A stretch of 5,469 nucleotides of DNA from a virus (lineage: Duplodnaviria > Heunggongvirae > Uroviricota > Caudoviricetes): IMG/VR virus record IMGVR_UViG_2740892230_000031, positions 1-5,469 of that record, one strand, 5' to 3'. The notes beneath the pieces are model-generated. The model had not been told where the DNA came from, searched no databases, and saw only the letters and a list, made by a program, of their open reading frames with translations. Of the stretch, positions 1 through 345 are shown piece after piece. Every line of letters starts with the position of its first letter. The first letter of the stretch is position 1. The position numbers were made by a program, and so were the translations under genes.

Positions 1-345
1 ATGAAAAAGGTATTGATTGCAGCACTTATTTCTGGTGTGTCTTTTGGCGCTTTTGCACAGCAGGGCGGTTTCCAAGGGCCTGAAGCAGAGCGTTCAACAG
101 TAGCGCAGGCAAAAGAACTGAAGGATGATGCATGGGTTATCCTTGAAGGGAGCATCGTTAAAAAAGTGGGTGATGAACGTTATGAGTTTCGTGACAATAG
201 CGGGACAATTGTCACGGATATCGATGACAGCATATGGGCCGGTCAGAATGTTTCTCCGAAAGACAAAGTAAGAATTGAGGGTGAAATTGATAAAGACCTG
301 AGCAGTGTTGAAGTGGATGTAAAGGCACTGAAATTATTAAAGTAA
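1..345 (+). CDS. BOF/YgiW-family (DUF388-like) periplasmic OB-fold protein with signal peptide
   Basis: 114-aa ORF. N-terminus MKKVLIAALISGVSFGAFA-QQ looks like a Sec signal peptide with an AxA cleavage site. The mature part (QGGFQGP..., YEFRDNSGTIVTDIDD..., PKDKVRIEGEIDKD..SVEVDVKALK) has the layout I recall for E. coli YgiW/YdeI-type proteins. TAA stop at 343-345. Confidence 0.8.
   Translation: MKKVLIAALISGVSFGAFAQQGGFQGPEAERSTVAQAKELKDDAWVILEGSIVKKVGDERYEFRDNSGTIVTDIDDSIWAGQNVSPKDKVRIEGEIDKDLSSVEVDVKALKLLK

Follow-up and report, generated by a model that had tools for sequence, protein, structure and literature searches.

We found that the gene at positions 1 to 345 of the analyzed stretch (IMG/VR record IMGVR_UViG_2740892230_000031; 5,469 nucleotides, hereafter the window) is a genuine and already annotated phage cargo gene, namely, L0136/Z1498 of 933W-type Shiga-toxin phages. 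Its product belongs to the BOF family and, judged by homology, is on balance probably a lysogen-fitness factor contributing to envelope-stress and antimicrobial-peptide tolerance. Besides, its closeness to the int-side genes in the window is an assembly artifact. The features on which these statements rest are collected in Table 1.

Table 1. Features assigned within the 5,469-nucleotide window and the evidence for each
Feature	Position	Strand	Evidence
BOF-family CDS, 114 aa	1..345	+	ATG-to-TAA ORF, family models, 1NNX match
Predicted Sec (SPase I) signal peptide MKKVLIAALISGVSFGAFA	1..57	+	n-, h-, and c-regions read from the sequence
OB-fold core, residues ~30-114	88..342	+	Alignment, AlphaFold model, Foldseek
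3' part of the 976-bp sok/mok/hok + BOF + terminator cassette	1..392	+	Block comparison
Predicted intrinsic terminator, 9-bp stem (361-383) plus T-rich tail TCTGTTTGTT	361..393	+	Hairpin prediction
62-aa ORF, ST933Wp73, PHROG 1925 (function unknown)	425..613	-	Convergent with the BOF gene
Stop codon of the ~2,790-aa LPD38/LPD5-domain gene, end of the virion-gene block	896..898	-	EDL933 mapping
Run of 10 N, standing for ~56 kb of prophage interior	899..908	.
antA/antB antirepressor gene, last 7 bases (TAA at 913-915)	909..915	+	Mapping to wrbA prophages
int-proximal end of a P13374/P14437-type wrbA prophage	909-4894		Mapping
3' part of wrbA	4891-5469		Mapping

Identity and distribution of the gene

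The gene and its product are 100% identical, at the nucleotide and protein levels, to L0136 of phage 933W (ST933Wp74; NP_049534.1), for which Z1498 in EDL933, H0152 in VT2-Sakai, ORF80 in Min27, and WP_000756595.1 are synonyms, and the UniRef representative A0A4P8BAV1 has exactly this sequence. The identity with 933W extends over the flanks within window positions 1 to 898. This segment also matched E. coli O157:H7 EDL933 and about 100 further STEC genomes at 100%, and a second match to it is present in EDL933. L0136 occurs in 45 phage records, among them 933W, VT2-Sakai, Min27, Stx2 phages I and II, one Stx1 phage, and the PA series. Furthermore, about 550 of the 5,426 complete E. coli genomes (~10%) carry the gene at 80% or more of its length, in two main alleles, one identical or nearly identical to the window sequence (n = 101) and the other ~97.7% identical (n = 450). 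A non-Stx prophage houses the commonest allele, in its nin region.

The gene call and the family name were already known from the 933W reference, RefSeq, and dozens of Stx-phage records; indeed, the annotation of the 933W record describes L0136 as [quoted passage not shown]. A literature search by phage and gene names found no paper on the phage gene, and a review of Stx-phage comparative genomics is silent on it. The earlier note, which had taken the gene for a possible prophage moron, was prepared to give up this view if mapping placed the gene in the core chromosome or if a profile search assigned it a structural or regulatory role. Mapping keeps the gene in the phage (see below), and neither PHROGs nor PADLOC gave a structural, regulatory, or defense assignment: PHROGs places the gene in family 1230 (function unknown), and the PADLOC defense models produced no match to it.

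Protein family, fold, and conserved residues

That the gene encodes a secreted OB-fold protein of the BOF/YgiW family, as proposed earlier, was borne out by the family models, the match to 1NNX, and the Sec signal. The product matched the Pfam BOF model PF04076 with an E value of 5e-33 and 113.7 bits (cut-off, 25.8) and NCBIfam NF033674 ("NirD/YgiW/YdeI family stress tolerance protein") with 136.4 bits (cut-off, 35), and it passed the TIGR00156 subfamily model narrowly (110.8 versus 108.15). Against the YdeI equivalog model NF007471, L0136 scored 63.7 bits, which is below the YdeI-ortholog threshold of 179. The sole solved relative found by sequence was E. coli YgiW (PDB 1NNX; E value, 3e-29). 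The same structure was the top Foldseek match of an AlphaFold model of the phage protein (E value, 4.6e-11; TM score, 0.91 on the target; 53% identity). This model, built on 13 homologs, showed five OB-barrel strands with pLDDT values of 92 to 97 at residues 31 to 110 and low values at residues 1 to 23. When invariance was scored across 13 homologs with identities down to 50%, the family-invariant residues were found to be kept in the phage protein: Y61, E62, F63, R64, D65, and G68; I74 and D75; W79; G81; E93, G94, and E95; and D97/D99.

The phage protein thus shares with E. coli YgiW and Salmonella VisP the PF04076 and TIGR00156 matches, the fold (TM score, 0.91), 53% identity, the Sec signal, an acidic mature protein, and the core residues. 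It differs from its nearest chromosomal relatives in length (114 versus 127 to 133 aa) and in having one GGFxGP repeat versus two, the first repeat being the missing one. Besides, the phage gene lies beside hok/sok in a phage cassette, whereas ygiW is found at a chromosomal locus. The qseBC neighborhood is the setting of chromosomal ygiW. A YgiW ortholog is chromosomal and encodes about 130 aa with two GGFxGP repeats; the phage gene does not have this profile. The comparison with YdeI (OmdA) of E. coli and Salmonella gave a similar picture, in that both are BOF-family proteins, YdeI being periplasmic, and the phage protein lies under the YdeI equivalog cut-off. The suggestion that the gene is an extra, divergent paralog therefore holds, given the 53% identity to YgiW, the score below the YdeI model, and one GGFxGP repeat fewer.

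Export and detection of the protein

The N terminus MKKVLIAALISGVSFGAFA is followed by QQ and ends in an AxA cleavage site (AFA, then QQ), with the cut predicted after Ala-19, before QQGGF. The predicted mature protein has 95 aa, a mass of 10.5 kDa, and a pI of 4.6, and it is acidic like YgiW. Cleavage of the Sec signal after Ala-19 would release a 10.5-kDa acidic OB-fold protein into the periplasm. This periplasmic export, predicted from the sequence, is consistent with a published secretome. [quoted passage not shown] The secretome entry is tied to the window gene through the UniRef representative identifier A0A4P8BAV1.

Stx2B and 933W structural proteins were present in the same EDL933 supernatants (PMC12962677), and spontaneously induced cells may therefore have contributed Z1498. 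Furthermore, since EDL933 holds a second match to window positions 1 to 898, the Z1498 peptides may not be specific to one allele.

The N run and the true neighbors of the gene

The earlier caution about the gap at 899 to 908 was justified: the gap is present, and in none of the 5,426 complete E. coli genomes are the two halves of the window contiguous. In AUSMDU00014361, both halves are found in one wrbA prophage, on the same strand and at opposite ends, window position 898 corresponding to 2,107,014 and position 909 to 2,050,877, with 56,136 bp between. This arrangement implies that the opposite ends of a single ~65-kb prophage are linked by the ten Ns, which hide an interior with the genes for late functions, lysis, Q, replication, immunity, and recombination. 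In principle, the source strain could instead contain two prophages whose ends the N run has joined. The gene had been described as lying co-directionally upstream of phage accessory genes; the strand is indeed the same, but the adjacency is false, because the two lie ~56 kb apart in AUSMDU00014361.

Following position 915, the window contains a 143-aa ORF, an MT-A70 methylase gene, DUF1382, DUF1627, and DUF4222 genes, the excisionase and integrase genes, and the 3' part of wrbA. Positions 909 to 5469 matched phages of the P13374/P14437/phi191 type at 99.7 to 100%, and not 933W. Thus, the prophage of the window differs from 933W in its int-proximal end, which is of the P13374/P14437 type.

On the other side, the rutG-proximal end in EDL933 reads, in order, a 5' stub of wrbA (15 codons), attL, ant, a TraR/DksA-like gene, ead/Ea22, a hypothetical gene, hokW/sokW, and the BOF gene, and AUSMDU00014361 has the same arrangement at the BOF end. 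The 5' neighbor of the BOF gene is accordingly hokW/sokW, and the 3' neighbor is a convergent 8.4-kb virion gene, the LPD38/LPD5 coding sequence, which occupies 9896 to 18277 (minus strand) in our EDL933 extract (L001), its remainder lying outside the window; window positions 1 to 898 run on into this gene in all of the complete genomes that we inspected. The small ORF between the BOF gene and this virion gene has a terminator-like hairpin of its own at 435 to 415 and lies outside the cassette described below. Two other interpretations of this end were dropped. A decayed SocA/Panacea-type antitoxin gene at 425 to 773 (minus strand) reached a best Pfam E value of only ~0.2, and the reading of the ant-to-BOF module as what is left of a second prophage in tandem did not accord with the gene order, which is unlike that of an early-left operon.

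These positions bear on whether scaffolding alone placed a core-chromosomal stress gene (ygiW or ydeI) from outside the prophage beside phage DNA. The N gap does break contiguity, which would leave room for such an error. However, attL and the last virion gene enclose the gene in both EDL933 and AUSMDU00014361, it is present in 45 phage records, only ~10% of complete E. coli genomes carry it, and the protein is 53% identical to YgiW and scores below the YdeI model. Comparative mapping thus rules out a core-chromosome origin, to which we assign a negligible probability, and the membership in a prophage supposed by the earlier note is confirmed.

A mobile hok/sok and BOF cassette

Block comparison showed that the BOF gene travels together with hok/sok. 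It is the distal gene of a ~1-kb (976-bp) cassette made up of the sok antisense RNA, the mok/hok toxin genes, the BOF gene, and the terminator. Positions 8417 to 9392 of the EDL933 extract are 97.3% identical to positions 6417 to 7392 of an extract (L111) from a non-Stx lambdoid prophage of O157:H7 TW14359, where the block is inserted into the nin region, with a DUF551 gene on one side and DUF968-RusA on the other. The right edge of the shared block, at 9392 in EDL933, is window position 392, just past the terminator. The block is also shared, at 88.6% identity and with the same right-hand end, by extract L057; the hok pairing and the right boundary likewise hold for an 82%-identical variant of the protein in an IMG/VR prophage contig. 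The Rfam sok model RF01794 scored 113.5 bits at 8557 to 8731 of the EDL933 extract, upstream of the window; over the whole window, no Rfam family reached its gathering score.

The known insertion sites of the cassette, both in nonessential regions of lambdoid phages, are the interval between the last virion gene and attP (933W, Sakai Sp5, and the prophage of the window) and the nin region, where the copy is flanked by genes unrelated to the 933W flanks. Phages of the P13374 type, which also integrate at wrbA, contain two short fragments of the hok region, followed by the flank of the giant gene, with no BOF gene. This jump from the hok fragments to the giant-gene flank shows that the BOF gene has been deleted there. 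P13374 and phi191 lack the gene, yet both are deposited as complete phage genomes. A check among related wrbA prophages, which had been recommended, was therefore answered both ways, in that 933W, EDL933, and AUSMDU00014361 carry the gene and P13374/phi191-type phages do not. The gene is not tied to wrbA phages or to the wrbA site. Its loss in the P13374 type, together with its recurrence in the nin region, indicates that it is dispensable and mobile. Of the moron proposal, the presence/absence variation, the differing flanks, and the gene's own terminator were supported, but the search for a promoter belonging to the gene gave nothing convincing. The gene resembles bor and lom of lambda, being nonessential cargo between phage modules that encodes an exported envelope protein, is variably present, and ends in a terminator; it differs from them in traveling as a two-gene unit with hok/sok and in having no convincing promoter in our scan.

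As to base composition, the GC content is 43.5% in the gene, 43.4% at window positions 346 to 898, 46 to 47% in the int-side phage genes, and 54% in wrbA, the value for the gene being below that of the host and barely unlike that of the adjacent phage DNA.

BOF genes are also carried by other mobile elements. Lambda-like E. coli prophages encode a 130-aa BOF protein with 55% identity at their end, past J-lom-stf-tfa and beside host genes, and a 127-aa protein with 52% identity is encoded between the Q antiterminator and holin genes of a Xenorhabdus prophage. The stx genes of Stx phages occupy the same Q-holin position. A plasmid copy adjoins zitB. The nearest chromosomal relatives, 52 to 58% identical, are found in Erwinia, Pantoea, Xenorhabdus, Symbiopectobacterium, and Hafnia; as they stand alone in unrelated, nonconserved neighborhoods, no donor locus can be named among them.

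Linkage to a self-stabilizing hok/sok locus could by itself keep such a gene in place, with no benefit to host or phage. The 933W-type alleles always adjoin hok, as expected of a passive passenger, and the association of "ygiW_2" with HUS, being tied to a mokC-like gene (PMC11950266; see below), may reflect linkage. However, dN/dS between phage alleles is 0.04 to 0.25, down to 82% identity, and all family-invariant residues are kept. Furthermore, the other BOF genes were acquired independently and without hok, which argues that the protein itself is selected. We therefore regard passive retention as improbable.

Terminator and sources of transcription

The presence of a terminator belonging to the BOF gene, claimed in the earlier note, agrees with our prediction of a hairpin at 361 to 383 (-15.7 kcal/mol; z score, -2.66) followed by a T tract. 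The 119-bp spacer between hok and the BOF gene shows high conservation and contains a good ribosome-binding site. In a sigma-70 consensus scan of this spacer, no promoter passed, the best candidate matching the hexamers at about 3/6 and 4/6 positions. Once the phage is integrated, the wrbA promoter of the host points into the ant-to-hok-BOF segment, and a single weak terminator-like site is predicted on that strand ahead of the BOF terminator. Possible sources of transcription in the repressed prophage are a weak, activator-dependent promoter in the spacer, read-through from hok, and, if the phage is integrated at wrbA, read-through from the wrbA promoter.

The cassette is co-directional with early phage operons at both known sites (the 933W end and the nin region), so that the gene could be expressed chiefly in the lytic cycle. 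After excision and circularization of the phage, the BOF gene would lie ~3.4 kb downstream of int across attP (933W coordinates) and not upstream of the int-side accessory genes. The gene might then be a lytic-cycle accessory, transcribed as a delayed-early gene (from PR via nin, or from PL via int-attP in the circle) and assisting the phage as it grows or is released, for instance, through a conditioned envelope or by keeping progeny from re-adsorbing to debris. The orientation of the cassette relative to the flanking early genes at both sites, the lack of a strong promoter of its own in the scan, and the detection of Z1498 alongside 933W structural proteins and Stx2B in supernatants all accord with such a function. 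On the other hand, the complete deposited phages P13374 and phi191 do without the gene, and its own terminator and its mobility with the hok/sok maintenance locus fit cargo of the prophage state better. A lytic function is thus unlikely in our estimation, and we favor a role of the BOF protein in the fitness of the lysogen.

Proposed role of the BOF protein

The residues that are invariant in YgiW, YdeI, and SipA are kept in the phage protein, and its function is therefore most likely as in those proteins. YdeI reportedly works with a porin in polymyxin tolerance (cited in PMC6370654). In Vibrio cholerae, SipA (VCA0732) was shown to bind antimicrobial peptides within the periplasm and to interact with OmpA, and the cells need it to survive H2O2 and cadmium; the same paper cites YgiW-OmpF and YdeI-OmpD interactions, cationic-peptide tolerance, and peroxide and cadmium phenotypes (PMC6370654). 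SipA is the best mechanistic model for the phage protein. Both belong to the BOF family, and SipA is periplasmic, as the phage protein is predicted to be; they differ in that sipA is chromosomal and induced by a two-component system on polymyxin B, whereas the phage gene lies in a cassette.

By analogy with these proteins, the phage BOF protein may capture cationic ligands, antimicrobial peptides among them, within the periplasm and may act jointly with an outer-membrane porin (OmpF, OmpD, or OmpA). In the gut, the lysogen would as a result better withstand antimicrobial peptides, peroxide, and stress from metals, and the gene would be a moron-type host-fitness gene that is not required for phage growth. 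Because E. coli already has YgiW and YdeI, the added benefit may be small.

An exported protein of this kind might also serve in superinfection exclusion or receptor masking, by binding a porin, OmpA, or BamA in the outer membrane and blocking the DNA entry or adsorption of competing phages; the lysogen would then be shielded against phages and not against stress in the host. BOF-family members do bind porins (PMC6370654), the BOF protein is exported (SPI prediction and detection in supernatants), and the gene is phage borne and recurs at positions that also host exclusion genes. However, the gene had no PADLOC match, and the known factors of this type are mostly lipoproteins or reside in the inner membrane. 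The chromosomal homologs, moreover, show stress phenotypes and not phage phenotypes (PMC6370654). We consider exclusion doubtful, with little probability in its favor, and retain stress tolerance of the lysogen as the reading to which the family and the conserved residues point.

Implications for Shiga-toxin phages and their hosts

In an Irish case-control genome-wide association study of HUS, an accessory gene, "ygiW_2", together with "group_5720" (mokC-like) was associated with HUS after adjustment for stx subtype (adjusted odds ratio, 5.5; 95% confidence interval, 1.9 to 18.6), and its authors treat the two as unrelated genes (PMC11950266). The sole accessory ygiW paralog that we found in STEC genomes directly adjoins a mok/hok gene, from which we infer that ygiW_2 and group_5720 are the hokW and BOF cassette. 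The HUS signal, if it comes from the cassette, may simply mark a phage type or lineage. That the cassette itself raises the fitness or virulence of EHEC, for instance, through tolerance to antimicrobial peptides or oxidative stress in the gut, is a speculative idea to which we give a low probability; if it did so, this would explain the association of ygiW_2 and the mokC-like gene with HUS (PMC11950266).

The window also serves as a warning on scaffolds, as ten Ns falsify any synteny that is read across the gap. For the phages, the product belongs to the small set of exported proteins without an assigned role that the most dangerous Stx2a phages carry, and selection on the BOF protein, its mobility, and its actual production are now indicated from several directions. 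Furthermore, BOF cargo recurs in unrelated temperate phages (933W-type, lambda-like, and Xenorhabdus phages), which suggests a general benefit to lysogens.

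Integration at wrbA

In EDL933, the promoter of host wrbA and the stub of the gene are directed into the prophage end (5560-9400 of the wrbA-prophage locus, L001), where ant, a traR/dksA-like gene, ead, hok, and the BOF gene all lie in the same direction as this promoter. Only one terminator-like site, a weak one, was predicted on the promoter strand of this interval ahead of the BOF terminator. Integration could place the antirepressor and cargo genes under a host promoter.

At the int end, the phage side of the junction supplies MINHILRHV, the first residues of a wrbA-3' ORF, in place of the host WrbA N terminus MAKVLVLYYSMYGHI, which remains at the other prophage end as a 15-codon stub followed by a stop. 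This ORF is still named wrbA in RefSeq, although the function of its product is doubtful, since the lost residues include the flavodoxin-like phosphate-binding loop.

Gap edges and the int-proximal region

Genes end at both edges of the gap (window 896-915), and ant is present in two copies per prophage of this type. The edges therefore resemble places where contigs broke off at the borders of repeat modules. Beyond the right edge, a 143-aa ORF (PHROG 1680, with a weak HTH_11 match), annotated as a "regulatory protein" in P13374, is paired with a gene for a DNA methyltransferase of the MT-A70 family. Together, the two typify the int-proximal region in P13374/phi191-type phages and are missing from that of 933W.

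Features located in the window and in related loci
Feature	Location	Strand	Remark
Giant LPD38 gene stop codon	window 896-898	-	left gap edge
ant stop codon	window 913-915		right gap edge
Terminator	window 929-947	+	after ant stop
143-aa ORF and MT-A70 gene pair	window 971-2025
MT-A70 gene	window 1399-2025		start overlaps 143-aa ORF by 4 nt
wrbA-3' ORF, its start (ATG) overlapping the int stop (TGA); wrbA stub	window 4880-5469; stub at other end, L001 5629-5680		ORF of 192 aa
Hairpin directly 3' of hok stop, within alignment A2	L001 8860-9010; L111 (TW14359 prophage) 6860-7010; L057 (IMG/VR contig) 5862-6010
BOF gene	lambda-like E. coli prophages (L010-L013)		after tail-fibre assembly gene
BOF gene	Xenorhabdus thuongxuanensis prophage (L060/L075)		between Q and holin
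BOF gene	141-kb E. coli plasmid (L009)		adjoins zitB

The hok-BOF cassette and its relatives

In alignment A2 of the hok-BOF region, the arms of the post-hok hairpin read GCGGGGGAG...CTCCCGC in 933W-type cassettes versus GCGAGGGAG...CCCTCGC in the 82%-identical type. These paired substitutions keep the base pairing, consistent with structural conservation at the 3' terminus of hok mRNA.

Further BOF-family genes are carried by other mobile elements, both prophages and a plasmid. Plasmids also match window 425-476, a segment of about 52 bp corresponding to the 3' end of a 62-aa PHROG 1925 ORF on the minus strand. The matching plasmids, approximately 390 at 90 to 98% identity, are mostly conjugative ones from Escherichia, Salmonella, and Shigella; some are about 92 kb, with a terminase annotated at the matching site.

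An Irish association study (PMC11950266) found the accessory pair "ygiW_2" and "group_5720 (mokC-like)" to be associated with HUS, and its authors did not link these genes with the phage hokW-BOF pair. We consider that the two are probably the adjacent BOF and hokW genes of the phage cassette.
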